DNA of 64,000 bases from sequence record MT944117.1, one strand, 5' to 3'. The position numbers and the translations under genes are program-made. A model generated the notes under the pieces. The model searched no databases and had not been told where the DNA came from. It was given only the letters and a program-made list of their open reading frames with translations. How positions within the stretch are numbered: the first letter of the stretch is position 1; every line of letters starts with the position of its first letter. This DNA is from Escherichia phage PNJ1809-36. This document shows, in pieces, positions 3,304-53,589 of this stretch.

Positions 3304-3468
3304 ATGATTTTAAACTTCATCATCAACTTGTGTTTGACATTGGGATTACTCTGTGCAATAGTATCCCCTCTGGTTGGTGAATATTGTTCTGAACTGGCGA
3401 TGTTTATAGTTCTTGGTGCGGCTATTGCTAATATGTTTATCGCTGCGATTTGTATGTTGTGGGAATAG
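3304..3468 (+). CDS. small membrane peptide (54 aa)
   Basis: SD AAGGAG + ATG 3304; two hydrophobic segments; below 60 aa so absent from ORF track. Confidence 0.45.
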   Translation: MILNFIINLCLTLGLLCAIVSPLVGEYCSELAMFIVLGAAIANMFIAAICMLWE

Positions 3469-3479
3469 GAGGGAAGTTT

Positions 3480-3836
3480 ATGAAAAAACTAATCTTAGCC
3501 ACATTGCTGGCTACCGTAAGCTTCACCACTTACGCTCAAAAATTTGTAGCAGTTAAAACGGATATTGGTAAAGATGTTGTGATCACAGGCAACAAATTTT
3601 ACTATACACCTGGGAATGGTGTTCTAGAAGAGTGCCAAGATGTTGAGGCATATACAGGAAAAGAAGATAACACGGAACGTCCTTTTTATTCGATTATAGC
3701 TACTTGCAAAAATGAAATAGTAGCTATTAAACAATACAAAGATGCCCCTGGAGGAGAGTACTTGTTAGTCAAGAATATTAAGAGTGAAAAAACTGCAAAG
3801 TTTACAGTAATTATTTTAAAAGGAGAAACGTTCTAA
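3480..3836 (+). CDS. secreted small protein with N-terminal signal peptide
   Basis: SD AGGAGGG + ATG 3480; MKKLILATLLATVSFTTYAQ signal-like N-terminus. Confidence 0.65.
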   Translation: MKKLILATLLATVSFTTYAQKFVAVKTDIGKDVVITGNKFYYTPGNGVLEECQDVEAYTGKEDNTERPFYSIIATCKNEIVAIKQYKDAPGGEYLLVKNIKSEKTAKFTVIILKGETF

Positions 3837-4975
3837 TGAAATACACTATTTTTGGAGATGTAGCTGTTGTAAATAAGGAATATGGCGTTGAAGCTAATAA
3901 ACTTCCTGCTGGAGTTTGGGTTGTCAACTGCGATCCGCACGGTAACTACTCTTTAGTGCGTGGCGAAAGTTTCTCTCTTCCGAACACTCTTTATGGGGAA
4001 ACTAAAGATCGCGCCGCACATGTTATTAAAACATTTGCTCGTCGTAGTAAAGAAGGTAAAAATACTGGGGTGTTACTGACAGGGACAAAAGGCAGTGGTA
4101 AGACGATGTTAGCTAAACTGATTAGCATGTCTCTAATGTCCACAGAAGGTTTAGGTATTCCAACCATTTTGGTTACACAGCCTTACACAGATGCTGGATT
4201 CTTAGAATTTATGAGTAAAATTACAGATCGTGCTGTTGTTTTATTTGACGAATTTGATAAAGTGTATGCTAAGAAAGAAGATCAGGAAGCACTGTTGACC
4301 TTGTTGGATGGAACAGGAAGTGGGAATAAACTTTACATCCTCACTAAAAATAGTGGTTATATCTCGGAATATTTTGTAAACCGTCCTAGTCGTATCTACT
4401 ACAGTTTCAATTACGATAAACTGTCTAGTGAAACTATGTTAGATTACTTGGATAAGAACTTGGTAAATAAAAAACACGTAGATAACTTCCAACGTTTATG
4501 GGATGTTAGCACAGAGTTGTCTTTCGATGTTATTCAAGGCATTGTAGAAGAATTGAATTTCTATCCAAAAATGACTTTTAAAGAATGTCTTGAAATGATG
4601 GGTATTTCTTTAGGCAATGATGCTAAATGGAATGTGGTTTCTATTGTAGCTAATGGCAAAACCTTGAAGGTGAATTGGATCAATAACTGGCACGACTTTA
4701 CCCCTACTAAGTTTTTGTCGGGTGCTTGTTCCTTGAACATCTATCTACAAAGCTTGAAAGATGATGAAGTGGAAGCAATGGAAACCAATAGTTATGTTAT
4801 CCTAGACGAAGATGGCGACCCACATATTGATCTATGTGCAACTGCTGATGGTCTAACTTGTGATCTGATTGAAGGTGGTAAGATCCTGGTGATGAGCACT
4901 ACACCAGGAAACACTCTGCGAGTGGTGCTGGAGCCTGTAACGCAGCGATCTACCACACTGGGTAGCGTATTCTGA
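3836..4975 (+). CDS. AAA+ family ATPase
   Basis: Walker A GTKGSGKT, Walker B VVLFDEFD, sensor ILTKN; 379 aa. Confidence 0.75.
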   Translation: MKYTIFGDVAVVNKEYGVEANKLPAGVWVVNCDPHGNYSLVRGESFSLPNTLYGETKDRAAHVIKTFARRSKEGKNTGVLLTGTKGSGKTMLAKLISMSLMSTEGLGIPTILVTQPYTDAGFLEFMSKITDRAVVLFDEFDKVYAKKEDQEALLTLLDGTGSGNKLYILTKNSGYISEYFVNRPSRIYYSFNYDKLSSETMLDYLDKNLVNKKHVDNFQRLWDVSTELSFDVIQGIVEELNFYPKMTFKECLEMMGISLGNDAKWNVVSIVANGKTLKVNWINNWHDFTPTKFLSGACSLNIYLQSLKDDEVEAMETNSYVILDEDGDPHIDLCATADGLTCDLIEGGKILVMSTTPGNTLRVVLEPVTQRSTTLGSVF

Positions 4976-8213: not shown

Positions 8214-8322
8214 GGTGTCGCCCTTTCTTTGTTGTGCGCCCTGGTTGGCGCGGTAGAAAGATGATAGCCCTTTCTTTTATATATAGCAAGCAAAAAGAAA
8301 ATAAAAAAGATTGAAAAAGTGA

Positions 8323-8381
8323 TTGACGTTCGCCAGGTGGCGGCATAATATTTACCACGTAGGGCGGCAATGGTGCCGCTC
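8323..8381 (+). promoter_or_regulatory. early cassette promoter E1 with 5'-proximal stem-loop
   Basis: -35 TTGACG 8323-8328, -10 CATAAT/TAATAT ~8344-8351, stem-loop GGCGGCA-ATGG-TGCCGCT 8362-8379. Confidence 0.65.
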
Positions 8382-8400
8382 ATTATTTGGAGTTAAGATC

Positions 8401-8598
8401 ATGGCAACATTGCACATTGTGGCGAAAGCTGGACAAATCAACGTAATAGTAAACGGTTTTACTGAGTTCAGTCATCCCCAGGATGATCATGAAACGGTTT
8501 TATCTTTCATTGATTCACTGTTAGAAATGGGAGTAATTACAGAAGATCAGCATACTGCAAAATGCAAGCGCGTTAAGCAGATTGCAGGAATAGAATAA
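8401..8598 (+). CDS. hypothetical early protein (65 aa)
   Basis: ATG 8401 after SD GGAG; listed ORF 8323 start lies in promoter. Confidence 0.6.
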   Translation: MATLHIVAKAGQINVIVNGFTEFSHPQDDHETVLSFIDSLLEMGVITEDQHTAKCKRVKQIAGIE

Positions 8599-8603
8599 AA
8601 GTC

Positions 8604-8666
8604 TTGACAACAAGCCACAACCTGATAAGATGTATCACATAGGGCGGCGGAATGGTCCAGCCGCTC
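8604..8666 (+). promoter_or_regulatory. early cassette promoter E2 with 5'-proximal stem-loop
   Basis: -35 TTGACA 8604-8609, TGaTAAGAT ext -10 8623-8631, stem-loop GGCGGCGGA-ATGG-TCCAGCCGC 8642-8666. Confidence 0.65.
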
Positions 8667-8689
8667 ACAACAGAAGAGAGATTATAATC

Positions 8690-8962
8690 ATGGCATCATA
8701 TAGCGCAACAATGATCGTAGCTGGCACAACTGGTAAACCTATGAGCGGTGGCGGATCTTTCGCTAATATCAATATTGACGGGCGTTTATCCCTGGACGCA
8801 GCGATTGCCATTGCACGGGAAACATTTAAGAAAGAATGTAATTTCAACAAGCAAGATTATCTCGGTTTCGCTATTGAAAAAACCGCGCGCTTTGTTGATT
8901 ATAAAAGCCCGAAAATGGTTGATACTACACTAAAAGCGCAAGATGTAGCGTTTTTGCTTTAA
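8690..8962 (+). CDS. hypothetical early protein (90 aa)
   Basis: ATG 8690 after AGAAGAGAG SD-like leader. Confidence 0.6.
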   Translation: MASYSATMIVAGTTGKPMSGGGSFANINIDGRLSLDAAIAIARETFKKECNFNKQDYLGFAIEKTARFVDYKSPKMVDTTLKAQDVAFLL

Positions 8963-8965
8963 GGC

Positions 8966-9020
8966 TTGACATTAACGAATAATTTGTTAATATGTTACAT
9001 AAAGCGGGAATAGTTCCCGC
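8966..9020 (+). promoter_or_regulatory. early cassette promoter E3 with 5'-proximal stem-loop
   Basis: -35 TTGACA 8966-8971, TGtTAATAT 8985-8993, stem-loop GCGGGAA-TAG-TTCCCGC 9004-9020. Confidence 0.65.
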
Positions 9021-9038
9021 TATTTGTAAGGTGGTAGA

Positions 9039-9296
9039 ATGTTTTACATCAAATTAAAAGGTCACGTGATCGCGTTCAAAGATAACGCTTTTTACAGATT
9101 AGCAAAATATGCGTTAATACATCCCCACTATGTTTATATAAGGGGGCGTGATGAAATAAATATCTTTGATCAAACAACATGCGAGAACATCGAGATCCGC
9201 AAGGTTGGCGTACGTGATTATCGTACATCTTTCTACCCTTGCAAGGATTCAGCAAGTCTTTTTAAAGTATGCCAATTGTTGAAAAAAGGTGGTTAA
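9039..9296 (+). CDS. hypothetical early protein (85 aa)
   Basis: ORF; SD GGTGG. Confidence 0.6.
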   Translation: MFYIKLKGHVIAFKDNAFYRLAKYALIHPHYVYIRGRDEINIFDQTTCENIEIRKVGVRDYRTSFYPCKDSASLFKVCQLLKKGG

Positions 9297-9297
9297 T

Positions 9298-9855
9298 ATG
9301 GGCCGCGAATATGTGATCCAGTCTTGGGTAAAACATGAAGCAGATGATCCGCGCATCATTCCCGATCATCTTATCGATGAATCCACGGGATATAGCGGTG
9401 AGCAAATAGGTAACAGATTAGCACGTAGTAACGGCAACGTAAAAGCGCGTTATGTGCGCCCTGGCTGGCTGGCAAATGGTAACGCTGATTTATCCAGTGC
9501 GGAAGATGCGAGCGACGGCGCGAAAGATAATCCTTTGTACAAAGTTGATCCGGCTTTTCGTGTCCTGGATGAATACCCCAGCAAGATAGCGGCGCTTGAT
9601 GAAGCATTAGAAAGTAAGCGCATAACCTGGACCGCTTACAACATGGCAAAAAACGTACTTGATGGTAAATTGATTCAAGCCGAAAGAAAATTAGCCAAAA
9701 TTGCAGCCATAGCCCAGGAGGAAGACGAGGAGACAACGGAAGAGGAAGAGTACGAAGAGATCCCGCCGTTGTTGTGTATTGATGCTTTTCCTGATTATCA
9801 GCCGACAGAGGAAGAAAAAAGGATCGCACTAGAAAACTTTGAAAATAGTCTTTGA
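9298..9855 (+). CDS. hypothetical early protein with acidic C-terminus
   Basis: ATG 9298 after SD AAAGGTGG; listed 9289 start is GTG in same frame. Confidence 0.6.
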   Translation: MGREYVIQSWVKHEADDPRIIPDHLIDESTGYSGEQIGNRLARSNGNVKARYVRPGWLANGNADLSSAEDASDGAKDNPLYKVDPAFRVLDEYPSKIAALDEALESKRITWTAYNMAKNVLDGKLIQAERKLAKIAAIAQEEDEETTEEEEYEEIPPLLCIDAFPDYQPTEEEKRIALENFENSL

Positions 9856-9910
9856 CATATCGCCGCCACTGGTATAATATTTACCACGTAGGGCGGCAAT
9901 GGTGCCGCTC
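9852..9910 (+). promoter_or_regulatory. early cassette promoter E4 with 5'-proximal stem-loop
   Basis: -35 TTGACA 9852-9857, TGgTATAAT 9870-9878, stem-loop GGCGGCA-ATGG-TGCCGCT 9892-9909. Confidence 0.65.
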
Positions 9911-9937
9911 ATAGTGAAATTATGCAAGAGGTTTACA

Positions 9938-10033
9938 ATGATTAATAAAGAAAATAGCTTGACGGTTGGAACGATTAACGCTATCATTTTCGCCGTTCCA
10001 TTTTGGGTTGTAGTAGCGGCTATTATTTTCTAA
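9938..10033 (+). CDS. small hydrophobic peptide (31 aa)
   Basis: first ATG after E4 with SD AAGAGG; single hydrophobic helix. Confidence 0.4.
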   Translation: MINKENSLTVGTINAIIFAVPFWVVVAAIIF

Positions 10034-10041
10034 AAATATTC

Positions 10042-10102
10042 TTGACAACGTTTTTTAATCTGATAAGATGTATCACATAGGGCGGCGGAATACTTCCCCG
10101 CC
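10042..10102 (+). promoter_or_regulatory. early cassette promoter E5 with 5'-proximal stem-loop
   Basis: -35 TTGACA 10042-10047, TGaTAAGAT 10061-10069, stem-loop GGCGGCGGAA-TAC-TTCCCCGCC ~10080-10102. Confidence 0.65.
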
Positions 10103-10123
10103 AAAACAAAAAAGGGTAACACA

Positions 10124-10486
10124 ATGAGCAAGCAAATCAATACTATCATGTTTAATCTGGTATCTTTCCGCGATGATATGAAAAATTTACCACGTGAAAC
10201 GGTTGATATTCATGTTTCAGCTTATCGCGCCCTTATTGATATGTTACCGCTAAAACGTGATCAACATGCCGCTAATATGATGCTTAATGCTATGCTTAAA
10301 AAGATGATTCAAACGGATCTTACTCTGGCGTATGAGTATCAAGGGCGCTTATATGCTACTTACAACAAGGCGGTACCTGGTCTGGGAAGTACCGAAGAGT
10401 TGCACGGCTTAAACTTGGATCAGAACACTTGGGATAGTATGCGCCGCGTTATGGTATGGGCCGAAAGCGGTAAAATTTACGAATAA
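10124..10486 (+). CDS. hypothetical early protein (120 aa)
   Basis: ORF; SD AAAGGG. Confidence 0.65.
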   Translation: MSKQINTIMFNLVSFRDDMKNLPRETVDIHVSAYRALIDMLPLKRDQHAANMMLNAMLKKMIQTDLTLAYEYQGRLYATYNKAVPGLGSTEELHGLNLDQNTWDSMRRVMVWAESGKIYE

Positions 10487-10492
10487 AAACGG

Positions 10493-10552
10493 TTGACACT
10501 GTTTAAAATTCCGGTATAGTTTACCACATAGGGCGGGAAGTGGTTTCCCGCC
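10493..10552 (+). promoter_or_regulatory. early cassette promoter E6 with 5'-proximal stem-loop
   Basis: -35 TTGACA 10493-10498, -10 TATAGT 10515-10520, stem-loop GGCGGGAA-GTGGT-TTCCCGCC 10532-10552. Confidence 0.65.
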
Positions 10553-10574
10553 AACAATGAAAAAGGTTATCATC

Positions 10575-10940
10575 ATGGCTATTAATATTAATGTTTCCTC
10601 TTATGCTACCCTGGCTAACACGGCTAAAATTGAATTATCCAGCATTGAGGCGGTGCATATTAGCGCCCGTCGCTGGTTTCAACAGTCCTACGGTAACACA
10701 TATTTTTCTTTAATGGTTGACGTTGAGATCGGCGGTAAACTGATCGAGGTGGTTAACGTTCCGTTTCAATATGGCTATGGTGATCATTTTGATACCGTCG
10801 CCCTGGAAGAATTTAGCAAGGTTATCAACCTTGAGGGCAAGGAATTTTCACGCGGCGCGTATCTTTCCCGTTTTTGCCGTGACAATGGGATCACTGTATA
10901 CAGTCATGCAAGCGATGTTAAACGTAAAAAAGATCTATAA
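10575..10940 (+). CDS. hypothetical early protein (121 aa)
   Basis: ATG 10575 with SD AAAAGG; listed 10557 start abuts the hairpin with no SD. Confidence 0.6.
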   Translation: MAININVSSYATLANTAKIELSSIEAVHISARRWFQQSYGNTYFSLMVDVEIGGKLIEVVNVPFQYGYGDHFDTVALEEFSKVINLEGKEFSRGAYLSRFCRDNGITVYSHASDVKRKKDL

Positions 10941-10946
10941 AAAGCA

Positions 10947-11005
10947 TTGACAGCACGAATAAAAAGAGTAAACTGTATTACATAGAGAGCGGGAACACTT
11001 CCCGC
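10947..11005 (+). promoter_or_regulatory. early cassette promoter E7 with 5'-proximal stem-loop
   Basis: -35 TTGACA 10947-10952, -10 TAAACT 10969-10974, stem-loop GCGGGAA-CAC-TTCCCGC 10989-11005. Confidence 0.65.
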
Positions 11006-11029
11006 CTCACTGAAAAAGAGAGAAAAATC

Positions 11030-11269
11030 ATGGCTAAATCTAAAATGTACAACGGTCACAAAAACAAAACTCATTGGAATGTAAGCCTGTGGATTAATAA
11101 CGATGAGGGATTGTATCGGTTTGCATTGGGATTGATCAATGAGTGCGGTAATAAAGATCAGGCGGCTGATTTAATGTGCTACCGTTTGAAACAGGATGGA
11201 ATCACTACAACGCCAGACGGCTTTAAGTATAGTAAAACTGCAATCCGCGCCGCTATGGTTGGAATGTAA
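11030..11269 (+). CDS. hypothetical early protein (79 aa)
   Basis: ORF; SD AAGAGAG. Confidence 0.6.
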   Translation: MAKSKMYNGHKNKTHWNVSLWINNDEGLYRFALGLINECGNKDQAADLMCYRLKQDGITTTPDGFKYSKTAIRAAMVGM

Positions 11270-11282
11270 AGGAGACATAAAA

Positions 11283-11363
11283 ATGAAACATCGTTCGACC
11301 TATCTCACAAAACGTTTTAGCTTAGATCATAAATTGGGCTATTACGGAAGAAATAGAAAATAA
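11283..11363 (+). CDS. small basic peptide (26 aa)
   Basis: SD AAAGGAG + ATG 11283. Confidence 0.3.
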   Translation: MKHRSTYLTKRFSLDHKLGYYGRNRK

Positions 11364-11364
11364 T

Positions 11365-11424
11365 TTGACAACGTTTAAAATTAGTGTAAGATGTATCACA
11401 TAGGGCGGGAAGTGGTTTCCCGCC
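11365..11424 (+). promoter_or_regulatory. early cassette promoter E8 with 5'-proximal stem-loop
   Basis: -35 TTGACA 11365-11370, -10 TAAGAT 11387-11392, stem-loop GGCGGGAA-GTGGT-TTCCCGCC 11404-11424. Confidence 0.65.
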
Positions 11425-11446
11425 AACAACAGAGAGATTAAAGATT

Positions 11447-11674
11447 ATGGCTATCAATATTGTTCGTGTATCCGGCACCGTTGGCAGTTCCCAGGTTGTA
11501 GCAGTTGTAACAAACAAAAAGATTAATGATGTATGTGAGATCTTGAATAAGTGGGCTATTGCTAATTTTGGAGAATATGCGAGCGTCGAGTACATCGAAT
11601 CCTACCAGGTGCCAACCATCAGCCTAACCGATCTCAACGTTGATCGCCTGTTATGCCTGGATGAATTAATCTGA
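11447..11674 (+). CDS. hypothetical early protein (75 aa)
   Basis: ORF; leader AACAGAGAGATTAAAG. Confidence 0.6.
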   Translation: MAINIVRVSGTVGSSQVVAVVTNKKINDVCEILNKWAIANFGEYASVEYIESYQVPTISLTDLNVDRLLCLDELI

Positions 11675-11683
11675 AAAAGATTG

Positions 11684-11740
11684 TTGACACGGGAAAGAAA
11701 AAGAGTAAACTGTATTACGTAGGGCGGCAATGGTGCCGCT
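11684..11740 (+). promoter_or_regulatory. early cassette promoter E9 with 5'-proximal stem-loop
   Basis: -35 TTGACA 11684-11689, -10 TAAACT 11706-11711, stem-loop GGCGGCA-ATGG-TGCCGCT 11723-11740. Confidence 0.65.
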
Positions 11741-11764
11741 CACAACAGAAGAGAGATTATCACG

Positions 11765-11980
11765 ATGGCTAATATCCGCACACTGTTAAAAAATGCAAGT
11801 CAAGTTTTATTTTCAGATGACGAGTATTTCAATAAAGACATTACGGGCGTAAAAAGTCTTAAAGATGTAAAGGATGTAATAGGTATTCGCGGATCTTTAC
11901 GTAAGGGCGATTACTACGGTAACAAGGTGCAATATAAACTGTCAAAAGATTATGATTTTACTTTGACAATTATCAACTAA
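11765..11980 (+). CDS. hypothetical early protein (71 aa)
   Basis: ORF; leader CACAACAGAAGAGAGATTAT. Confidence 0.6.
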   Translation: MANIRTLLKNASQVLFSDDEYFNKDITGVKSLKDVKDVIGIRGSLRKGDYYGNKVQYKLSKDYDFTLTIIN

Positions 11981-11991
11981 GGGATCACAAA

Positions 11992-12150
11992 ATGAAAACT
12001 TGCCAATGTGGTAAAAAGTCTATCTCTGGTTTAAAACGTGGCGTTGCTCTTTGTCAATACCACTATAACGCTCAAACGTGGGGTAAGCAGTGGGCGGATC
12101 AGGTGGAAGAGGCAAAGAAAGAAAATATAAAAGTAGTTGCAAAGAAATAA
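11992..12150 (+). CDS. small Cys-containing protein (52 aa), possible zinc ribbon
   Basis: SD AAGGGA + ATG 11992; CQCG...LCQYHY. Confidence 0.4.
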   Translation: MKTCQCGKKSISGLKRGVALCQYHYNAQTWGKQWADQVEEAKKENIKVVAKK

Positions 12151-12198
12151 AAATAGAGTAAACTGTATTACATCAAGGCGGCGGAATGGTCCACCGCC
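12137..12198 (+). promoter_or_regulatory. early cassette promoter E10 with 5'-proximal stem-loop
   Basis: -35 TTGCAA 12137-12142, -10 TAAACT 12159-12164, two-helix stem-loop GGCGG-c-GGA-ATGG-TCC-a-CCGCC 12177-12198. Confidence 0.55.
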
Positions 12199-12222
12199 TA
12201 ACAAAGAGAAGAGGAAAATATC

Positions 12223-12390
12223 ATGATCACTTTCGCTACCCGTGAAGCCGCTCGCAACGTTGCACGTAAAGTTAACGCCGCCAACTTGGGCGCTACGCTT
12301 AAAGCCCCTGTAAAAGATGAATCAGGAAAATGGATCTTACCTGGTCTGCGTCATGCTGACAAGTTAGGTACTTTAAGCCTTAAAAAATAA
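12223..12390 (+). CDS. hypothetical early protein (55 aa)
   Basis: ATG 12223 after AGAGAAGAGG leader; N-terminus MITFA shared with next gene. Confidence 0.5.
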   Translation: MITFATREAARNVARKVNAANLGATLKAPVKDESGKWILPGLRHADKLGTLSLKK

Positions 12391-12393
12391 TCG

Positions 12394-12430
12394 TTGACTT
12401 TTCGTTATAGCGCCTTATAATGGGCGCTAT
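12394..12430 (+). promoter_or_regulatory. promoter E11 with perfect 8-bp inverted repeat flanking the -10
   Basis: -35 TTGACT 12394-12399, -10 TATAAT 12416-12421, IR ATAGCGCC (12406-12413) / GGCGCTAT (12423-12430). Confidence 0.6.
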
Positions 12431-12464
12431 AGAGAAGAGAAACCACTATTAACAAGGAAACATC

Positions 12465-12686
12465 ATGATTACTTTTGCTATTGTCGCCGTTGTTGCTGGT
12501 CAGGTTTACGTAAACGAGACATTTACTACAGAAGACAAGGCCGCAGGAGATATAACCGCCGTTTACAATGAGTGCAAGGCAGTAGAAAGGATGTTATCGC
12601 CTTGTATGCTAATGAGTGAACGTCAGGATGGGATAACAGTATTTACTAACATTGAAACAGGGTACCAAATGGTAGTAACAAAATAA
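12465..12686 (+). CDS. hypothetical early protein (73 aa)
   Basis: ORF; SD AAGGAAAC. Confidence 0.6.
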   Translation: MITFAIVAVVAGQVYVNETFTTEDKAAGDITAVYNECKAVERMLSPCMLMSERQDGITVFTNIETGYQMVVTK

Positions 12687-12689
12687 AGC

Positions 12690-12746
12690 TTGACACGTAT
12701 TTAATTTTCAGTAAACTGTTACACGTAGGGCGGGAATAGTTCCCGC
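12690..12746 (+). promoter_or_regulatory. early cassette promoter E12 with 5'-proximal stem-loop
   Basis: -35 TTGACA 12690-12695, -10 TAAACT 12712-12717, stem-loop GCGGGAA-TAG-TTCCCGC 12730-12746. Confidence 0.65.
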
Positions 12747-12764
12747 TAAAAAGAGAGAAAGACC

Positions 12765-13118
12765 ATGAAAGCACAAAATGCAATTAAAGAGTACATCCTT
12801 GCCGCTATCGATTTTAATGATTATGGTATTACAACCGAAAAAGAGAAGATCGCGGAATTGATGCGCCGTTTTAATTCCGAGTACTGGTACCCTGATAACC
12901 AATCACGTTTTAATTATAGTATTGTTAAAGCACTTGCATCATGGTTACAAGGTTTGCCATCAGATATTAATATCGCTTTCGAATATTGGGAAATTGATCG
13001 CTTGTTAACATCCTGGGGATACATTAAAGAGAATAGCAGCGATGATAAAATCCAACGAGAAAGGGAAAATTATTGGCTTTATATTGCAGGCGTGATCCTT
13101 GCTTGCTCTTATGAATGA
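12765..13118 (+). CDS. hypothetical early protein (117 aa)
   Basis: ORF; leader AAAGAGAGAAAGACC. Confidence 0.65.
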   Translation: MKAQNAIKEYILAAIDFNDYGITTEKEKIAELMRRFNSEYWYPDNQSRFNYSIVKALASWLQGLPSDINIAFEYWEIDRLLTSWGYIKENSSDDKIQRERENYWLYIAGVILACSYE

Positions 13119-13124
13119 TAAACC

Positions 13125-13178
13125 TTGACAATTTTACAAAACAGTTTAAATTAATAATATAGCGGCAATGGTGCCGCT
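13125..13178 (+). promoter_or_regulatory. early cassette promoter E13 with 5'-proximal stem-loop
   Basis: -35 TTGACA 13125-13130, -10 TAAATT ~13148-13153, stem-loop AGCGGCA-ATGG-TGCCGCT 13161-13178. Confidence 0.55.
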
Positions 13179-13197
13179 CATATAAAGAGGAAACAAA

Positions 13198-13344
13198 ATG
13201 AATACATCTAATCGCGCAGAAAAAATTCAATCTTCCAAGATCCGCAAGGCCTGGAATGAGGAAGTGATCCGCAAAGGCGACAAGCGCAATAAAACAAAGC
13301 GCGGGAAGAGTGACAAATATAATTGGATGGATTTAGAGAATTAA
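13198..13344 (+). CDS. small basic protein (48 aa), Lys/Arg-rich
   Basis: SD AAAGAGG + ATG 13198; KIRKAWNEEVIRKGDKRNKTKRGK. Confidence 0.45.
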   Translation: MNTSNRAEKIQSSKIRKAWNEEVIRKGDKRNKTKRGKSDKYNWMDLEN

Positions 13345-13352
13345 CATAACAA

Positions 13353-13378
13353 GGGCGCACCAAGCGCCCTTTCTTTTT
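13353..13378 (+). terminator. rho-independent terminator
   Basis: GGGCGC-ACCAA-GCGCCC followed by TTTCTTTTT; identical copy at 18808. Confidence 0.75.
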
Positions 13379-13399
13379 ACATGTAGAGGATAAACAAAA

Positions 13400-13585
13400 A
13401 TGACTTTAAACGAGCTTAAAACAGCCTATAACGCAACATTAAAAATAGCCGTGCGTTACCGTGACGAATACGGTTTTATTGCGCAGGGCGTGATCCTGGG
13501 CTTTTCTGACGATGGTTTGATCTATGTTGATGCACATCACAACAAGGTTAAACTTGAAAACGTCATTAGCATAAAATATCTTTAA
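13400..13585 (+). CDS. hypothetical early protein (61 aa)
   Basis: ORF; SD GAGGA. Confidence 0.55.
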   Translation: MTLNELKTAYNATLKIAVRYRDEYGFIAQGVILGFSDDGLIYVDAHHNKVKLENVISIKYL

Positions 13586-13591
13586 AAGTGG

Positions 13592-13650
13592 TTGACACCA
13601 TAACCGGACCTGTTAAACTGTATTACATCAGGCGGGGAATAGTTCCCCAC
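13592..13650 (+). promoter_or_regulatory. early cassette promoter E14 with 5'-proximal stem-loop
   Basis: -35 TTGACA 13592-13597, TGtTAAACT 13611-13619, stem-loop GGGGAA-TAG-TTCCCC 13634-13648. Confidence 0.65.
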
Positions 13651-13670
13651 CATACAAAAAGGTAAATATT

Positions 13671-13877
13671 ATGATCACCGCAAAACAAGAAAAAATCATT
13701 ATCGACGTTGCAGCCGTTGCCGCTATTGCTATTATCGGTACCTACTATGACACCGCGCGTCCTTCCTCCTTGCATGAGATCGCCGCCGTTGCATCAGTTG
13801 GCGTGCTGTTTTACGTTGGTAAACGTTATTTATCACCAATGATTAACAAGCTGACACCGTGGAAAAATAAAGGTTGA
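13671..13877 (+). CDS. small membrane protein (68 aa)
   Basis: ORF; two hydrophobic segments (VAAVAAIAIIGTYY, IAAVASVGVLFYVG). Confidence 0.6.
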   Translation: MITAKQEKIIIDVAAVAAIAIIGTYYDTARPSSLHEIAAVASVGVLFYVGKRYLSPMINKLTPWKNKG

Positions 13878-13929
13878 TCCTGTTTTATATTGTGTTATAG
13901 TTATCGTGTAGGGCGGCAATGGTGCCGCG
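13874..13929 (+). promoter_or_regulatory. early cassette promoter E15 with 5'-proximal stem-loop
   Basis: -35 TTGATC 13874-13879, TGtTATAGT 13893-13901, stem-loop GGCGGCA-ATGG-TGCCGC 13912-13929. Confidence 0.6.
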
Positions 13930-13948
13930 CCCCTTTGAGGATGCAATC

Positions 13949-14233
13949 ATGAGTAAAGCTAACACCGTGCTAATGTTTTCCCTGATTAATGATCCCGCTT
14001 ACTTGTCCAACATGACGCAGGAGGGTAACACATTAACGGCAACATTCACCAATAAGCTTGACCGAGTGATCATCATCTCACTGAAAACAGTTAGTAAAGG
14101 CTTTTACTCGTTAGCTTATCATTGGATCACTGATACCGATGAGACAAGCCAGGACTATAGCGCCCCTTTCCCTGAATCAATGGCACGGGAGATCATCGCC
14201 GCCGTTGTAAATGATGGTTTGTTTACTGCATAA
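13949..14233 (+). CDS. hypothetical early protein (94 aa)
   Basis: ATG 13949 after SD GAGGA; listed 13919 start lies within the hairpin. Confidence 0.6.
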   Translation: MSKANTVLMFSLINDPAYLSNMTQEGNTLTATFTNKLDRVIIISLKTVSKGFYSLAYHWITDTDETSQDYSAPFPESMAREIIAAVVNDGLFTA

Positions 14234-14251
14234 AATAATTTAGAAAAAGGC

Positions 14252-14308
14252 TTGCAATCATTTTGAGATAGTGTATATTTAATTCATAGGGCGGCGGGAA
14301 TAGTTCCC
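14252..14308 (+). promoter_or_regulatory. early cassette promoter E16 with short 5'-proximal stem-loop
   Basis: -35 TTGCAA 14252-14257, -10 TATATT 14274-14279, stem-loop GGGAA-TAG-TTCCC 14296-14308. Confidence 0.5.
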
Positions 14309-14331
14309 AAAGCAAACGAGAGGATTACACG

Positions 14332-14451
14332 ATGAGCAAGTACACAGTAGAATACACGGTAGAGAATCCGGTAGTATCCGAAGGTAAAAAGATGACATTT
14401 GCCATCAGTATAATCGCTTTCGTTGTCACTATCTTATCAATCATCTTATAA
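14332..14451 (+). CDS. small membrane peptide (39 aa)
   Basis: SD GAGAGGA + ATG 14332; C-terminal hydrophobic helix. Confidence 0.4.
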   Translation: MSKYTVEYTVENPVVSEGKKMTFAISIIAFVVTILSIIL

Positions 14452-14461
14452 GGTGCACACC

Positions 14462-14623
14462 ATGAAAATAACAGACATTATCAAAGAGATCGCCCTTGCC
14501 GCTGGCGTTGAAGTCGAGGAAGTGATCGCGCTCAATCTTACAGAAAACGATCTGCGCAACTATGAAGCGGAAAGCGTGAAAGCAAGCGGCGCGGTCCTGG
14601 TATATGATCCGGCTAACAAGTAA
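14462..14623 (+). CDS. hypothetical early protein (53 aa)
   Basis: ATG 14462 after SD AAGGTG; listed ORF 14423 start is upstream alternative. Confidence 0.5.
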   Translation: MKITDIIKEIALAAGVEVEEVIALNLTENDLRNYEAESVKASGAVLVYDPANK

Positions 14624-14632
14624 GGGGATAAC

Positions 14633-14743
14633 ATGAATCCGAAAGATATGCAAGCATGGAAAGGGTACGACGATCTAAGCGCCTTGCGCAATAAGTCAAG
14701 CCGTAACCTTAGACGGTTGGAAGCAAAGAAAAAGAAAAAATAG
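14633..14743 (+). CDS. small basic peptide (36 aa)
   Basis: SD AAGGGGA + ATG 14633; Lys-rich C-terminus. Confidence 0.35.
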   Translation: MNPKDMQAWKGYDDLSALRNKSSRNLRRLEAKKKKK

Positions 14744-14744
14744 T

Positions 14745-14801
14745 TTGACAAGTCCGCGTAGTCTGATAATATGTATCTTGTAGCGCGGCAATGGTGCCGC
14801 T
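14745..14801 (+). promoter_or_regulatory. early cassette promoter E17 with 5'-proximal stem-loop
   Basis: -35 TTGACA 14745-14750, TGaTAATAT 14764-14772, stem-loop GCGGCA-ATGG-TGCCGC 14785-14800. Confidence 0.65.
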
Positions 14802-14821
14802 CACAAGAAGAGAGAAAAATC

Positions 14822-15106
14822 ATGAAAATTACAAAAAGCCTAACTAATTATGCAGCACGTCGCGGATTATGCTTAACCGTTGAAAACTTAGGGAAAGAAG
14901 ACTTTTTGTGTTTTTGGGAGCTTGAGAATGATTGCGAGTGGATGTTTTCTTATTCTATCTGCGAAGATCAAAACGGTTGTTTGTTAACCTGGCGCGGTAA
15001 TATCTATTTACCGGAAGAAATTAAAGAAGAGTTACCAGGTACGATCATGACAGAGAGACAGCTTAAGGAAGTGATCAATTTTGTAGGGCAAAACATTAAA
15101 AAATAA
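14822..15106 (+). CDS. hypothetical early protein (94 aa)
   Basis: ATG 14822 after leader CACAAGAAGAGAGAAAAATC. Confidence 0.6.
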   Translation: MKITKSLTNYAARRGLCLTVENLGKEDFLCFWELENDCEWMFSYSICEDQNGCLLTWRGNIYLPEEIKEELPGTIMTERQLKEVINFVGQNIKK

Positions 15107-15107
15107 T

Positions 15108-15169
15108 TTGACAGTAGGCAAACAACGTAGTAAAGTTTATTACATAGAGCGGCGGAATGGTCCACCGCT
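15108..15169 (+). promoter_or_regulatory. early cassette promoter E18 with 5'-proximal stem-loop
   Basis: -35 TTGACA 15108-15113, -10 TAAAGT 15131-15136, two-helix stem-loop GCGG-c-GGA-ATGG-TCC-a-CCGC 15148-15169. Confidence 0.6.
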
Positions 15170-15191
15170 CACAACAGAAGAGAAACAAATC

Positions 15192-15362
15192 ATGATCCCG
15201 ACTATGTTTTATGTATCGCGCAAAGGTCACAATATTTTTTGGTCTGAAGATTTAAATGAAGCTATGACGTTTGCCCGTGATCGTGTTGCTATCGGTGGCG
15301 TTAACATCACCGTAACCGATGAAAATGGCATTGAATACTATAACGGCGACGATGAAGAATAA
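15192..15362 (+). CDS. hypothetical early protein (56 aa)
   Basis: ATG 15192 after conserved leader CACAACAGAAGAGAAACAAATC. Confidence 0.5.
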   Translation: MIPTMFYVSRKGHNIFWSEDLNEAMTFARDRVAIGGVNITVTDENGIEYYNGDDEE

Positions 15363-15369
15363 TTAATGA

Positions 15370-15390
15370 GGCGGGGGAGTATTCCCCGCC
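15370..15390 (+). ncRNA. promoter-less intercistronic GC stem-loop (same family as cassette hairpins)
   Basis: GGCGGGGGA-GTA-TTCCCCGCC, no T-run, no upstream -35/-10. Confidence 0.45.
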
Positions 15391-15409
15391 GTCAATAAAG
15401 AGGTAAATC

Positions 15410-15679
15410 ATGAAAATATCATTAGACGTTGCAATCAAGGCCATCGAATCTGGTTACATCCTGGTAAAAGATGATAAGGCTAAAATAGTGCATCATGTTA
15501 ACAAGGAAACAGGTGAAAGCATGATCACATATAAAGCCGCCTACTTTCTCCAATCAGTAGCAGATCCGCGCGTACAACGCCAGGTTACGGCGGCTATTGC
15601 TAAAAAATTATGTGCTTTACAGGGTACAAGTTTTAACGAGATCGCCCCGTGTTTTGAGTGGTCAAGCTTGAAAAAATAA
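15410..15679 (+). CDS. hypothetical early protein (89 aa)
   Basis: ORF; SD AAAGAGG. Confidence 0.6.
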   Translation: MKISLDVAIKAIESGYILVKDDKAKIVHHVNKETGESMITYKAAYFLQSVADPRVQRQVTAAIAKKLCALQGTSFNEIAPCFEWSSLKK

Positions 15680-15680
15680 T

Positions 15681-15742
15681 TTGACAACAATTATAAATCG
15701 GGTAGAATGTATTTCGTAGGGCGGGGCAATAAGGCAACGCCC
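15681..15742 (+). promoter_or_regulatory. early cassette promoter E19 with degenerate 5'-proximal stem-loop
   Basis: -35 TTGACA 15681-15686, -10 TAGAAT 15703-15708, GGGCG...CGCCC 15719-15742. Confidence 0.55.
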
Positions 15743-15760
15743 ATTAATGAGGGTAGAATC

Positions 15761-15865
15761 ATGTTAGAGAAAATTTTCACGGTCGTAGTAGTGGGCCTGG
15801 CGTTATCGGTTGGAGTGGTTGCGACTATGGCTAACATGATCCTATCTTCCCACGGTATCGGCTAA
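15761..15865 (+). CDS. small membrane peptide (34 aa)
   Basis: SD GAGGG + ATG 15761; hydrophobic helix. Confidence 0.4.
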   Translation: MLEKIFTVVVVGLALSVGVVATMANMILSSHGIG

Positions 15866-15879
15866 AAGAGAGACACAAC

Positions 15880-16266
15880 ATGAAAACAGAAATCATTATT
15901 GAAATCATCAACGGCTATAAAGAAGCCTTTATTTTTGCTGAATCAGCAAGGGATCATGAAGGTAATTTTATTGATAACTTAGACGATTATGATTTTTCTC
16001 CTAGCGCGGACGAACGGATCGCCCAGGATGTAACAGCCTTTATTAATGCTAATCTTGCCGCTATCTCTGAGGCAATGAGCGACGGCGCAACAGCCAACCA
16101 GATCGGGAATGATTTACATTTTACCCGTAACAGTCACGGCGTAGGCTTTTGGGATCGCCCTGAAATATACACCACTAACACAGCCAACCGCCTAACCAAT
16201 GCAGCTAAGTTTATGCCGAACGTGTCGGCTTACATTGGTGAAGATAATTTGATTTATATTGAATAA
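15880..16266 (+). CDS. hypothetical early protein (128 aa)
   Basis: ORF; SD AAAAGAGAG. Confidence 0.65.
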   Translation: MKTEIIIEIINGYKEAFIFAESARDHEGNFIDNLDDYDFSPSADERIAQDVTAFINANLAAISEAMSDGATANQIGNDLHFTRNSHGVGFWDRPEIYTTNTANRLTNAAKFMPNVSAYIGEDNLIYIE

Positions 16267-16272
16267 AAAGTA

Positions 16273-16329
16273 TTGACACAGATCGCCAGTGTGCTAATAT
16301 TTACCACGTAGGGCGGCAATGGTGCCGCC
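16273..16329 (+). promoter_or_regulatory. early cassette promoter E20 with 5'-proximal stem-loop
   Basis: -35 TTGACA 16273-16278, TGcTAATAT 16292-16300, perfect stem-loop GGCGGCA-ATGG-TGCCGCC 16312-16329. Confidence 0.65.
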
Positions 16330-16347
16330 GATAATGAGGAAAGTAAA

Positions 16348-16647
16348 ATGGAAACTATCGCTATTGTTACCGTAGAAAAACTGGTTGTTGGTGATGTATT
16401 CGCGTTAATGGTGCCTAACAGCAGCAAGCTGGGCGCTTATGAAGTAATGGATCATAAAAATGAATCATTTGGCGACGGTTGCACAATGGCGGTAAAATCC
16501 TTAAAGGATGGAATCATCCGTCAAGCTAATTGGCACAAAGGGAATCAAGTCGGATTAATATCAGCTAATTTCTTGCCAGAAGAGCAAACGTTAGACCAAC
16601 TATCAGGCGGTAAGACGTTAGCCGAACTACTGGAAACAGCGATCTAA
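16348..16647 (+). CDS. hypothetical early protein (99 aa)
   Basis: ORF; SD GAGGAAAG. Confidence 0.65.
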   Translation: METIAIVTVEKLVVGDVFALMVPNSSKLGAYEVMDHKNESFGDGCTMAVKSLKDGIIRQANWHKGNQVGLISANFLPEEQTLDQLSGGKTLAELLETAI

Positions 16648-16655
16648 TCAACAAA

Positions 16656-16669
16656 GGGCGGCAACGCCC
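16656..16669 (+). ncRNA. promoter-less intercistronic GNRA-tetraloop hairpin
   Basis: GGGCG-GCAA-CGCCC, no T-run. Confidence 0.4.
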
Positions 16670-16690
16670 CACATCAGAAAGGAAAAGATT

Positions 16691-16927
16691 ATGAGTATTG
16701 CAACAGTATTAACCGCCGTTAAAACCGCTGAATCATCCGGCTTGCATGTTGAGCTTATAGATCAACCAGGTGGCGATCTCCTTGTCCAGGTTTACCCGCC
16801 GAAAGTAGGAGATGATTATTATTGGTGCTATTCTGATACGTTCGAACAAGTAGACACGAAAGCGATCACGGCTTTTATTTTAAAAGCTGTTGAAGAAAAT
16901 AACTTTCATTATAACATCAATCAATAA
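16691..16927 (+). CDS. hypothetical early protein (78 aa)
   Basis: ORF; SD AAAGGAAAAG. Confidence 0.6.
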   Translation: MSIATVLTAVKTAESSGLHVELIDQPGGDLLVQVYPPKVGDDYYWCYSDTFEQVDTKAITAFILKAVEENNFHYNINQ

Positions 16928-16936
16928 ACTTTAAGC

Positions 16937-16952
16937 AGGGCGGTAACGCCCT
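16937..16952 (+). ncRNA. promoter-less intercistronic GNRA-tetraloop hairpin
   Basis: AGGGCG-GTAA-CGCCCT, no T-run. Confidence 0.4.
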
Positions 16953-16982
16953 ATTAAACGCAATAGGAAGAGGATAGAAAGC

Positions 16983-17273
16983 ATGAAAAAGATGATCGCA
17001 GTAGTTGCCCTGGTTGTTGGTATTAACGCGCCTGCAATGGCTAATGATTTGCCTGAATCCATCACGTTAACCGATATCAACGCGGTAAACCGGATCGGTG
17101 TTAATTATCGCCTATGCCTTGCCGCTAAAACTTTCCAGGACGGCACGACAGAATACCACGGATTCGAGGGTATCCGCTGCGGTGAGCTTGCACGCGACCT
17201 TAAGGAAGATCCAGACCTTGAGGCCATACCGATGACCGTAAACGGTAAAGCTTACGTAAACCGCCAACAATGA
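16983..17273 (+). CDS. secreted/periplasmic small protein with signal peptide
   Basis: MKKMIAVVALVVGINAPAMA signal-like N-terminus; SD GGAAGAGG. Confidence 0.65.
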   Translation: MKKMIAVVALVVGINAPAMANDLPESITLTDINAVNRIGVNYRLCLAAKTFQDGTTEYHGFEGIRCGELARDLKEDPDLEAIPMTVNGKAYVNRQQ

Positions 17274-17284
17274 GAAAGGTAATC

Positions 17285-17404
17285 ATGACAATGGGGATCA
17301 TAGTAGCAACGCTGGCGCTGATCCCCTTCCTGGTTGAATATGTGCTGATTAGTGTTGTCCTGGTAGTCAGTGACTTATTGGAAACGGTTGGCACCTGGTT
17401 TTAA
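17285..17404 (+). CDS. small membrane peptide (39 aa)
   Basis: SD GAGAAAGG + ATG 17285; hydrophobic throughout. Confidence 0.4.
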   Translation: MTMGIIVATLALIPFLVEYVLISVVLVVSDLLETVGTWF

Positions 17405-17416
17405 GGAGTAATAAAA

Positions 17417-17608
17417 ATGAATGCAGAACAAGTTAGAAAGGTATTAGCAGCGTTGCGGTATCACAACCATAGCAAGGTAAAGAATGATCCTGATTATGTG
17501 GATTCAAGCCTGGAAGAAGACACATTGCAAGCTATAAGCCATATGCAAGAATTGTTTAAGCGTATGACAGAGAAAAACAGATCTGATTATATAGGTGACG
17601 AGATCTAA
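17417..17608 (+). CDS. hypothetical early protein (63 aa)
   Basis: ORF; SD AAGGAG. Confidence 0.6.
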   Translation: MNAEQVRKVLAALRYHNHSKVKNDPDYVDSSLEEDTLQAISHMQELFKRMTEKNRSDYIGDEI

Positions 17609-17620
17609 TCCTTACAAAAA

Positions 17621-17646
17621 CAGGGCTTGCTTTTGTCCTGTTTTTT
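17621..17646 (+). terminator. putative rho-independent terminator
   Basis: CAGGGC-loop-GTCCTG (one G-U) followed by TTTTTT. Confidence 0.45.
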
Positions 17647-17785
17647 GTTATACTTATTGAACGGGCGGCACCTGGTAGCAGGGGAAGATAATCACCGGAC
17701 GACCCCGCTATATATTGATAGCTAACATCTATCAAACAACAAAACATCAAAGAAATAAACTATCAAATCTTTACAATGCTACCTA

Positions 17786-17846
17786 TTGACACCGGATCAC
17801 GCTTACATTATTATTTATCACGTAGGGCGAGCAATACAGCAAGCCC
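17786..17846 (+). promoter_or_regulatory. early cassette promoter E21 with degenerate 5' stem-loop
   Basis: -35 TTGACA 17786-17791, -10 TATTAT 17809-17814, conserved TTATCACGTAGGGCG initial sequence. Confidence 0.55.
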
Positions 17847-17863
17847 ACAAAGAGGAAAATAAA

Positions 17864-25053: not shown

Positions 25054-25368
25054 ATGTCAGAAGAACTAAAAGAATTTTATCAGGCATATCATAACTGGCT
25101 GTTAGCTGGCGCTCCAGATAATAATCCTTTCTGGCACGATAAAGGATTATGTAGTTGCCTCTACCTTTGGACTGGTGGTTACGATGATCTAAATTATGAA
25201 ATGCAAATGCAATTTCGAGAAGCAGGGTTGTCTGAAGAATACCCGTTTGATGACGGAGACTGGTTTAAATATGATTTTGCACAAAGAAACGGGCTATTGC
25301 ATTTGAATGCTGCCCGTATAAAATGGGTAAAAGATCATGCTACACAGGAGGATGTGCAATGCCAATAG
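25054..25368 (+). CDS. paralog family member 2 (GLC...PF...WVKDR family)
   Basis: SD CAGGAGG; FYQAYHNWLLAGAP..KGLCSCL...YPFD...ARIKWVKDH. Confidence 0.7.
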   Translation: MSEELKEFYQAYHNWLLAGAPDNNPFWHDKGLCSCLYLWTGGYDDLNYEMQMQFREAGLSEEYPFDDGDWFKYDFAQRNGLLHLNAARIKWVKDHATQEDVQCQ

Positions 25369-36978: not shown

Positions 36979-37080
36979 ATGGTTTCATTTATCGTAGGTG
37001 TAGTTGTAGGCTATCTGATTAACAAATATCAAGACGTTATCACGGCAAAAGTAAAAGACATTTTAGACTCATCTAAATAA
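36979..37080 (+). CDS. small membrane peptide (33 aa)
   Basis: SD AAGGAGAAA + ATG 36979. Confidence 0.4.
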   Translation: MVSFIVGVVVGYLINKYQDVITAKVKDILDSSK

Positions 37081-53581: not shown

Positions 53582-53589
53582 AACCCTCC

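Follow-up and report, generated by a model that had tools for sequence, protein, structure and literature searches.

Conserved genes for very small membrane and exported proteins in a promoter-rich region of Escherichia phage PNJ1809-36

INTRODUCTION

Do the very small hydrophobic open reading frames (ORFs) scattered through a stretch of the genome of Escherichia phage PNJ1809-36 encode real proteins, and what might such proteins do? The stretch analyzed (sequence record MT944117.1; 64,000 nucleotides, hereafter the window) carries between positions 9938 and 17404 four such ORFs, p9938, p14332, p15761, and p17270, together with sp16983, one of three genes in the window for proteins with a signal peptide; the other two are sp3480 and sp26290. 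An earlier note on this DNA had listed these genes and two more tiny ORFs elsewhere (p3304 and the ORF at 36979), had described all of the tiny ORFs as single-helix membrane proteins, and had proposed that such proteins are made early and serve in superinfection exclusion, lysis inhibition, or inhibition of the host envelope machinery.

The window belongs to Phapecoctavirus (Stephanstirmvirinae), phAPEC8-like Escherichia coli myoviruses of ~150 kb. Nucleotide comparison of positions 9800–17500 gives 94–97% identity to numerous Phapecoctavirus genomes, among them those of Escherichia phages KKP 3954, ESCO37, and tuntematon. The region is mosaic: stretches of it are shared at 70–88% identity with Justusliebigvirus (Paula, phi92-like) and with rV5-like Vequintavirinae, and homologues of the small ORFs occur in three genera and two subfamilies.

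Judged by their conservation, the tiny ORFs are genuine genes under purifying selection. For their function, the interpretation favored here, at a probability of roughly 55%, is that they and the exported proteins are translated, accessory early proteins of the inner membrane and periplasm that bind envelope proteins, as comparable small proteins of other systems do.

CENSUS AND HYDROPATHY OF THE SMALL ORFs

A six-frame census of the window, which has an A+T content of 60%, gives 12 ORFs starting with ATG, encoding 25–70 aa, and having a Kyte-Doolittle score (KD19) of at least 2.4. A Shine-Dalgarno (SD) site precedes seven of the 12, and all seven are located on the plus strand within the first 26 kb; four hydrophobic small ORFs devoid of SD are on the non-coding strand. 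In 40 composition-matched simulations with a first-order Markov model, the mean number of hydrophobic small ORFs was 1.0 (maximum 4), falling to 0.07 (maximum 1) for those with an SD. The seven SD-preceded ORFs are thus not an artefact of composition.

All ORFs listed in the earlier note are present, and the single-helix description holds for the four located between 9938 and 17404 (Table 1). Each of these has a stretch of 17–19 residues with a Kyte-Doolittle mean of at least 2.46 (KD19 2.46–2.69) and a negative approximate Hessa dG of -1.1 to -3.5 kcal/mol. Lysine and arginine residues are confined to the N-terminal side of the helix, and hence an N-in/C-out topology is predicted. The layout of p14332 is that of a hydrophilic N-terminus of 20 aa followed by a C-terminal transmembrane helix. 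The description fails for the two other ORFs: p3304 has two hydrophobic segments, and the ORF at 36979 has ~14 hydrophobic residues with a dG of ~+4.7, which makes a transmembrane helix unconvincing.

Other hydrophobic small ORFs, absent from the earlier list and all with PHROG families, are found at 2340–2516, 25359–25559, 13671–13877 (p13671), 30200–30523, and 34278–34487. By a rough gene call of the 1–38 kb block, a transmembrane segment occurs in 6/18 plus-strand genes of up to 60 aa and in 4/59 genes of 61–150 aa. Membrane or exported proteins, including the three with signal peptides, account for ~13 of the 86 plus-strand genes of this part and for none of the 46 genes of the minus-strand block. 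Shares such as ~13/86 overall and 6/18 among the small genes are ordinary for proteomes and small-protein sets, and the cluster of small membrane proteins is therefore no unusual enrichment.

Some candidates were rejected. The ORF at 16348–16647 passed the Kyte-Doolittle threshold but has charged residues within the segment, and three minus-strand "signal peptides" picked up by the heuristic are Rossmann-type N-termini of SIR2, RmlA-like, and RmlB-like enzymes.

CONSERVATION AND SELECTION

The p15761 reading frame has exactly 34 codons in 17/17 distinct sequences, which come from Phapecoctavirus, Justusliebigvirus, and Vequintavirinae (rV5 among them), with start and stop kept. Its C-terminal half, ATM(A/S)N(M/V)ILS(S/F)(H/N)GIG, shows almost no variation between the two subfamilies. 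Variable columns are distributed over the three codon positions as 18/9/25, the ratio of nonsynonymous to synonymous substitution rates (dN/dS) is ~0.2, and the binomial P against neutrality goes down to 9e-6.

The other peptides keep their length and frame as well. All homologues of p14332 have 39 codons, including the 39%-identical version of Paula (dN/dS 0.13–0.4, P ~0.001). In p9938, which varies between 31 and 35 aa, the first 16 aa are almost invariant (one N/K change), and the C-terminus is variable in sequence and always hydrophobic; in Justusliebigvirus, the leader is not part of the DNA similarity, which sets in essentially where the ORF does. The p17270 reading frame has 44 codons in 13 sequences (dN/dS 0.26–0.45, P ~0.005), a conserved C-terminal SDLLETVGT(W/L)F, and a solvent-type E/K/R position at residue 23. 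The earlier note had started this ORF at 17285. Thirteen distinct homologues retain the ATG at 17270 and the N-terminus MRK(V/I)I, and in most of them codon 6, the ATG at 17285, is Ile; the start is thus at 17270.

Across subfamilies, the amino-acid identity of the small ORFs is 66–79%. An Rfam scan of the entire 64 kb at gathering thresholds gave 0 matches, i.e., no tRNA, known small RNA, or riboswitch by Rfam, and thus no RNA family that would account for the conservation instead. Since frame, length, start, and stop are conserved, dN/dS is below 1, and the ORFs exceed chance expectation, the earlier proposal of genuine genes for very small membrane and exported proteins, kept by purifying selection, is borne out at the level of sequence. 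The p13671 homologue is disrupted in phage KKP 3954 (positions 4137–4295 of the KKP 3954 locus), where the annotated ORF has 159 nt vs. 207 nt and the match is split into two frames, so that this gene is dispensable.

PROMOTER AND LEADER CASSETTES

In the region of ~8.6–17.8 kb, nearly every gene is located behind its own sigma-70-type promoter, TTGACA-N16/17-TAnnnT. Most of these promoters are followed by a conserved leader with TAGGGCGG at its start and a GC hairpin that does not include the SD. The window has 12 exact copies of TAGGGCGG, all on the plus strand, vs. 0.33 expected. When near-identical copies are included, ~19 promoter and leader cassettes are seen on the plus strand at 8300–17850, with a leader start of (C/T)(A/G)TAGGGCGG and a GC-rich hairpin. 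The Paula record labels the leader hairpins as minus-strand terminators. Promoter/stem-loop "PeSL" cassettes mediate gene shuffling in T4-like phages (PMC2839356, PMC4122927); the cassettes described here resemble them and, by analogy, may explain the cassette-wise gain and loss of genes among the relatives.

The earlier note had assigned early-type promoters to all of its small genes. Strong sigma-70-type promoters lie directly before only p9938, p14332, and p15761, each of which is the first cistron behind a promoter and leader cassette, and the p9938 unit (9852 to 10040) contains the 31-aa ORF alone. The assignment is only indirectly true of sp16983 and p17270, which are inside the five-gene unit starting at 16273, and it does not apply to p3304/sp3480, sp26290, and the ORF at 36979, which have no adjoining promoter cassette. 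A promoter-like site, TTGACA-17-AATAGT, occurs within p3304 at 3334–3362 (plus strand), ~120 nt 5' of sp3480, and is either a chance match or an internal promoter.

EXPORTED PROTEINS AND THE sp16983/p17270 PAIR

The three signal peptides, also reported in the earlier note, hold up as plausible Sec signals and signal peptidase I substrates by a heuristic: all fit the pattern of MKK, a hydrophobic core, and a small-x-small site (AxA or TYA). Direct reading finds in none of the three a lipobox, L-[AS]-[GA]-C, or a Cys at or near the cleavage site. The mature part of sp16983 has 76 aa and two conserved Cys. Its predicted fold, beta3-alpha-beta with both Cys kept, is modelled confidently (predicted local distance difference test, pLDDT, 91). 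The mature part of sp3480, also with two conserved Cys, is predicted as a small all-beta barrel with a moderate pLDDT of 69. Neither of these two folds matches a superinfection-exclusion or lysis-inhibition protein, and sequence searches of the PDB with sp26290 and sp3480 found nothing.

The stop codon of sp16983 overlaps the ATG at 17270 (ATGA). In 12/12 fetched loci with sp16983, p17270 follows directly, the stop and start overlapping or being 2 nt apart, and the next gene is of phrog_9599. Full-length sp16983 is found in 172 phage records; for p17270, the 44-aa query reaches only E~1e-4 in tblastn even at 93% identity. Both genes are absent from the fetched 14-kb syntenic stretch of Paula. 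A second adjacency of a membrane and an exported protein is formed by p3304 and sp3480 (3304–3836).

In rV5, the p15761 homologue is only ~300 bp upstream of the sp16983/p17270 pair. A 71-aa gene (VOG5365) follows the p15761 homologue in tuntematon and rV5 and is missing at 15865–15880 here, and three genes (15880–16927) lie between p15761 and sp16983 here but not in rV5. These differences are cassette-level indels.

Table 1. Small membrane-protein and exported-protein genes of the window and associated transcription signals.
Feature	Position	Strand	Description
p9938	9938-10033	+	31 aa, MINKENSLTVGTINAIIFAVPFWVVVAAIIF; SD AGAGG; single-helix membrane peptide (predicted)
p14332	14332-14451	+	39 aa, MSKYTVEYTVENPVVSEGKKMTFAISIIAFVVTILSIIL; SD GAGAGGA; predicted tail-anchored; phrog_10979 "membrane protein"
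p15761	15761-15865	+	34 aa, MLEKIFTVVVVGLALSVGVVATMANMILSSHGIG; SD GAGGG; membrane peptide (predicted); phrog_14631
p17270	17270-17404	+	44 aa, MRKVIMTMGIIVATLALIPFLVEYVLISVVLVVSDLLETVGTWF; no SD, start overlaps upstream stop; phrog_16005
p3304	3304-3468	+	54 aa; two hydrophobic segments; phrog_27459; directly 5' of sp3480
36979 ORF	36979-37080	+	33 aa; strong SD; phrog_11666; hydrophobic stretch short and weak
p13671	13671-13877	+	68 aa; two moderately hydrophobic segments; phrog_30003
sp16983	16983-17273	+	96 aa; Sec-type signal, predicted cleavage AMA|ND; phrog_9845; rV5 gp166
sp3480	3480-3836	+	118 aa; signal-peptide protein, predicted cleavage TYA|QK; phrog_5474
sp26290	26290-26688	+	132 aa; signal-peptide protein, predicted cleavage ANA|SQ; phrog_26124
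Promoter of p9938	9852-9880	+	TTGACA-17-TAATAT, sigma-70-type
Leader hairpin of p9938	9889-9915	+	TAGGGCGGCAATGGTGCCGCTC, conserved; minimum-free-energy stem of 8 bp
Promoter of p14332	14252-14279	+	TTGCAA-16-TATATT; followed by TAGGGCGG leader at 14287
Promoter of p15761	15681-15708	+	TTGACA-16-TAGAAT; followed by TAGGGCGG leader hairpin, 15717-15745
Promoter of five-gene unit with sp16983 and p17270	16273-16300	+	
Terminator-like hairpin (intrinsic type), end of five-gene unit	17616-17645	+	
Example cassettes	9852-9915, 10042-10104, 15681-15745, 16273-16335	+	Promoter and leader hairpin

DATABASE SEARCHES AND EXISTING ANNOTATION

Ten candidates were scanned, i.e., the nine genes of the earlier note and p13671. 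Nine of them match PHROG families over their full length, p9938 being the exception; the matches of families 10979, 14631, 16005, and 9845 have E-values of 1e-22 to 3e-58. The label is "membrane protein" for one of these families and unknown function for the others. Pfam, NCBIfam, and PADLOC profile scans of the ten gave no significant match (for Pfam, none at E ≤ 0.1). PHROG and Pfam scans of ten neighboring genes returned products of unknown function in every case, and thus no clue from context.

Homologue searches, which covered 5.8 billion proteins and 1.84 billion representatives, found close phage relatives only (for sp16983, p17270, and sp3480), indicating narrow families. For p15761, a HMMER search of all representatives found 2 clusters only, again a narrow family. 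A back-translated motif scan of IMG/VR hit four contigs, of which the one inspected is from the same phage group, and 5,426 complete E. coli genomes gave no match. The literature search found no transcriptomic, ribosome-profiling, or functional study of these genes.

The earlier note had held that most of the small genes fall below annotation cut-offs, which is true in part. Annotation is uneven: among the records listed, the p17270 homologue is unannotated in about half and the p15761 homologue in most. Besides having PHROG families in nine of ten cases, however, the genes are annotated in phAPEC8, rV5, tuntematon, and further phages. phAPEC8 annotates the 2340, 3304, and 3480 ORFs; p9938 is annotated in tuntematon (gp044), ESCO37, and PaulScherrer; RefSeq records name p14332 "membrane protein." The p17270 homologue is rV5 ORF 170 (44 aa), described as "membrane protein, 1 TMD" (transmembrane domain) among 15 predicted membrane proteins (PMC3606486). 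The small membrane-protein genes are therefore already catalogued and partly annotated as such, and the finding points to no new kind of system.

PROPOSED ROLE AND ALTERNATIVE EXPLANATIONS

According to the favored interpretation, the genes would be part of an early region that is hyperplastic in this phAPEC8-like phage. The products of p9938, p14332, p15761, and p17270 would be single-pass, N-in/C-out proteins of the inner membrane, and sp16983, sp3480, and sp26290 would be exported via Sec to the periplasm, where they are probably disulfide-bonded. Because the units of p9938, p14332, and p15761 begin with a host-sigma-70 promoter and a 5' stabilizing hairpin and have the peptide gene as their first or sole cistron, these peptides would be made within minutes of infection. 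p17270 would be translationally coupled to sp16983, and the two are probably partners in an inner-membrane/periplasm pair. The peptide helix may then pack against one particular envelope protein, of the host or of the phage, and alter its activity, whereby the envelope would be remodelled in favor of the phage.

The distribution of conservation is consistent with such contacts. In p9938 and p14332 it is found in the cytoplasmic N-terminus, in p15761 in the polar half at the periplasmic side, and in p17270 in the C-terminus, a pattern that points to specific protein contacts rather than to bulk membrane damage. Precedents exist for several of the steps. PhiNM1 has an early small membrane protein, Gp11, that binds MurG and DivIC (PMC11237401); AcrAB-TolC is the assumed target of T4 Ac (PMC13250531); the 75-aa T4 Spackle acts early as an inhibitor in the periplasm (PMC7677548); and membrane proteins of 27 aa are inserted by E. 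coli through the signal recognition particle (PMC7549839).

Several observations weigh against this interpretation. Neither the Pfam, NCBIfam, and PADLOC scans nor structure comparison gave a homology or fold match pointing to a target. The transmembrane and signal-peptide calls are hydropathy heuristics and not SignalP predictions, and the selection statistics for p9938 are weak (dN/dS 0.2–0.5, P 0.03). The sigma-70 cassette block is plausibly the early region, a placement made from promoter type only; sigma-70 promoters have been described for rV5 as well (PMC3606486), and the array has a T7 gene 1.1 homologue, both in agreement with this placement. Finally, the patchy distribution of the genes and the disruption of p13671 mean that they are dispensable, and some of them could be nearly neutral passengers.

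Were the ORFs chance hydrophobic frames in the T-rich leader or spacer DNA between cassettes, the 60% A+T of the window, the four SD-less hydrophobic ORFs of the non-coding strand, and the missing annotation in several relatives would be readily understood. This is hardly credible for seven SD-preceded ORFs where 0.07 are expected, with invariant length (in p9938, 31–35 aa), dN/dS below 1 at P down to 9e-6, and 66–79% amino-acid identity across subfamilies. A role as regulatory upstream ORFs, in which translation sets the expression of the following cistron (14462 after p14332, 15880 after p15761) and the peptide itself is irrelevant, is very unlikely. The stops of p14332 and p15761 are indeed 10–14 nt before the next start codon, and the C-terminus of p15761 is strikingly conserved right before its stop. 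However, the gene 3' of p15761 varies, being of phrog_1915 here and the 71-aa VOG5365 gene in tuntematon and rV5, no cistron follows p9938 before the next promoter, and the hydrophobic character of the peptides is kept even where their sequence diverges. The helix of a 34-aa peptide would, moreover, still be inside the ribosome tunnel at termination, which argues against a MifM/SecM-type sensor; a force-sensing arrest peptide was considered for p15761 and rejected, as p15761 lacks the necessary length and the gene behind it differs between phages.

A third possibility is that the peptides are membrane-active toxins or viroporin-like proteins, oligomerizing in the inner membrane to dissipate the proton-motive force or permeabilize the membrane and thereby contributing to host shut-off or lysis timing. 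The size and architecture (30–45 aa, one helix) are those of type I toxins, residues that are polar or small (T, N, S, G), as expected for helix-helix association, occur in the conserved C-terminal half of p15761, and early phage products are often toxic according to a review (PMC13250531). This remains unlikely: Pfam yields no match among the Hok/Gef, Ldr, Ibs, TisB, or holin families; the peptides are placed at the start of the infection program, when depolarization would harm the energy supply of the phage itself; and the hydrophilic N-terminus is conserved in p9938 and in p14332, which suggests specific binding rather than bulk membrane damage. Superinfection exclusion would involve sp16983 and p17270, and possibly p15761, in blocking wall penetration or DNA entry of later related phages in the manner of Spackle and Imm. 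The pair is part of a promoter-driven early unit and is conserved across Phapecoctavirus and rV5-like phages, which share related tail machinery. In form, sp16983 is Spackle-like, having a signal, a mature part of 76 aa, and two Cys vs. 75 mature aa and one disulfide (PMC7677548). Yet a Pfam scan brings up neither Imm nor Sp nor any other family of exclusion proteins, the absence of a lipobox excludes a Llp/Cor-like mode, and Justusliebigvirus Paula does not have the pair in its syntenic region; exclusion is thus rather improbable. Of the functions proposed in the earlier note, then, neither exclusion nor lysis inhibition nor envelope inhibition finds sequence or fold evidence, the Pfam, NCBIfam, and PADLOC scans included. 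A related and similarly doubtful idea is that sp16983 and p17270, a pair conserved in ~170 phage genomes of two subfamilies, constitute an unrecognized periplasm/inner-membrane device with new folds, an independent functional analogue of T4 Sp/Imm, which might keep competing phages from penetrating the envelope or delivering their DNA, or might neutralize a host defence based in the envelope. Just as doubtful is a separate idea, that p15761 has a specific and conserved target in the host inner membrane, of which its nearly unchanging polar C-terminal half would be the mark.

As it stands, the finding shows small-ORF annotation to be inconsistent in this phage group. If one of the peptides does bind a defined host envelope protein, it would be a new phage-derived inhibitor or exclusion factor, and would provide a handle on the large pool of uncharacterized early genes of phAPEC8-/rV5-like phages, which are used in phage-therapy cocktails. 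The best experimental candidates are the sp16983/p17270 pair and p15761.

OTHER FEATURES OF THE WINDOW

GC skew changes sign at ~38 kb, where the coding strand switches. At this switch point, the minus strand encodes a 266-aa protein with a SIR2-family domain (38308–39108; PF02146, E 3e-20). Also on the minus strand, the two neighboring genes of 52703–54582 are for a nucleotidyl transferase like RmlA (PF00483, E 8e-73) and an NAD-dependent 4,6-dehydratase like RmlB (PF16363/PF01370), which suggests phage-encoded synthesis of a deoxythymidine diphosphate sugar.

Within the cassette array, the 48-aa protein encoded at 13198–13344 (plus strand) matches PF08200 (bacteriophage T7 gene 1.1 protein, E 5e-13). 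Its homologue in phage SKA64 is labelled "TDP-4-keto-6-deoxy-D-glucose transaminase," which looks like an annotation error. Two more plus-strand products carry labels in the records of relatives: the 71-aa product of 11765–11980, "phosphoribosylpyrophosphate synthetase," has no Pfam match, and the 120-aa product of 10124–10486, "membrane protein," has neither a Pfam match nor a hydrophobic segment. Both labels look like propagated mis-annotations.

COMPARISON WITH KNOWN SYSTEMS

The homologues in phAPEC8 and rV5 and the members of PHROG families 10979, 14631, 16005, 27459, 11666, 5474, 9845, 26124, and 30003 are the same proteins, at 66–100% identity. T4 Sp resembles sp16983 in being early (by promoter type in the case of sp16983), in its two Cys, in a signal that is cleaved off (by prediction in sp16983) to leave a mature domain of ~75 aa, and in its company, since sp16983 is accompanied by the small inner-membrane protein p17270 and Sp functionally by Imm (PMC7677548). 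Sp and sp16983 have no sequence similarity, and the predicted beta3-alpha-beta fold of sp16983 differs from the compact alpha-helical bundle of Spackle, a protein that binds the gp5 lysozyme. Imm, of ~83 aa with two helices, is larger than p17270 with its 44 aa and one helix, and no candidate has a Pfam match to Imm. The lipoprotein exclusion factors T5 Llp and Cor are different from the three signal-peptide proteins, which have no lipobox and are hence not of this type.

The barrel predicted for sp3480 recalls the PliC/MliC inhibitors of lysozyme in the periplasm and the beta-barrel immunity proteins of type VI secretion systems. It is a generic barrel (avidins and designed barrels score equally) modelled at pLDDT 69, and sp3480 has no Pfam match; the signature motifs of PliC/MliC, whose barrel has 8 strands, are not visible in its sequence. 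None of the 10 candidates matches a PADLOC profile for anti-phage defence or exclusion.

Type I toxins (Hok/Gef, Ldr, Ibs, TisB) share with the tiny peptides their size, a single hydrophobic helix, and targeting to the inner membrane. Unlike these toxins and ShoB, the peptides have no Pfam match of this kind, no Rfam antitoxin RNA in the window, and no copy in the 5,426 E. coli genomes, and they are placed behind strong constitutive-type promoters and good SD sites rather than being repressed by antisense RNA. The small membrane proteins and effectors AcrZ, MgrB, SgrT, YohP, PhiNM1 Gp11, and T4 Ac, which are not homologous to the peptides, have, like them, 27–50 aa and a single helix, and the known examples act by binding larger membrane proteins (PMC12648545, PMC11237401, PMC13250531, PMC7549839).

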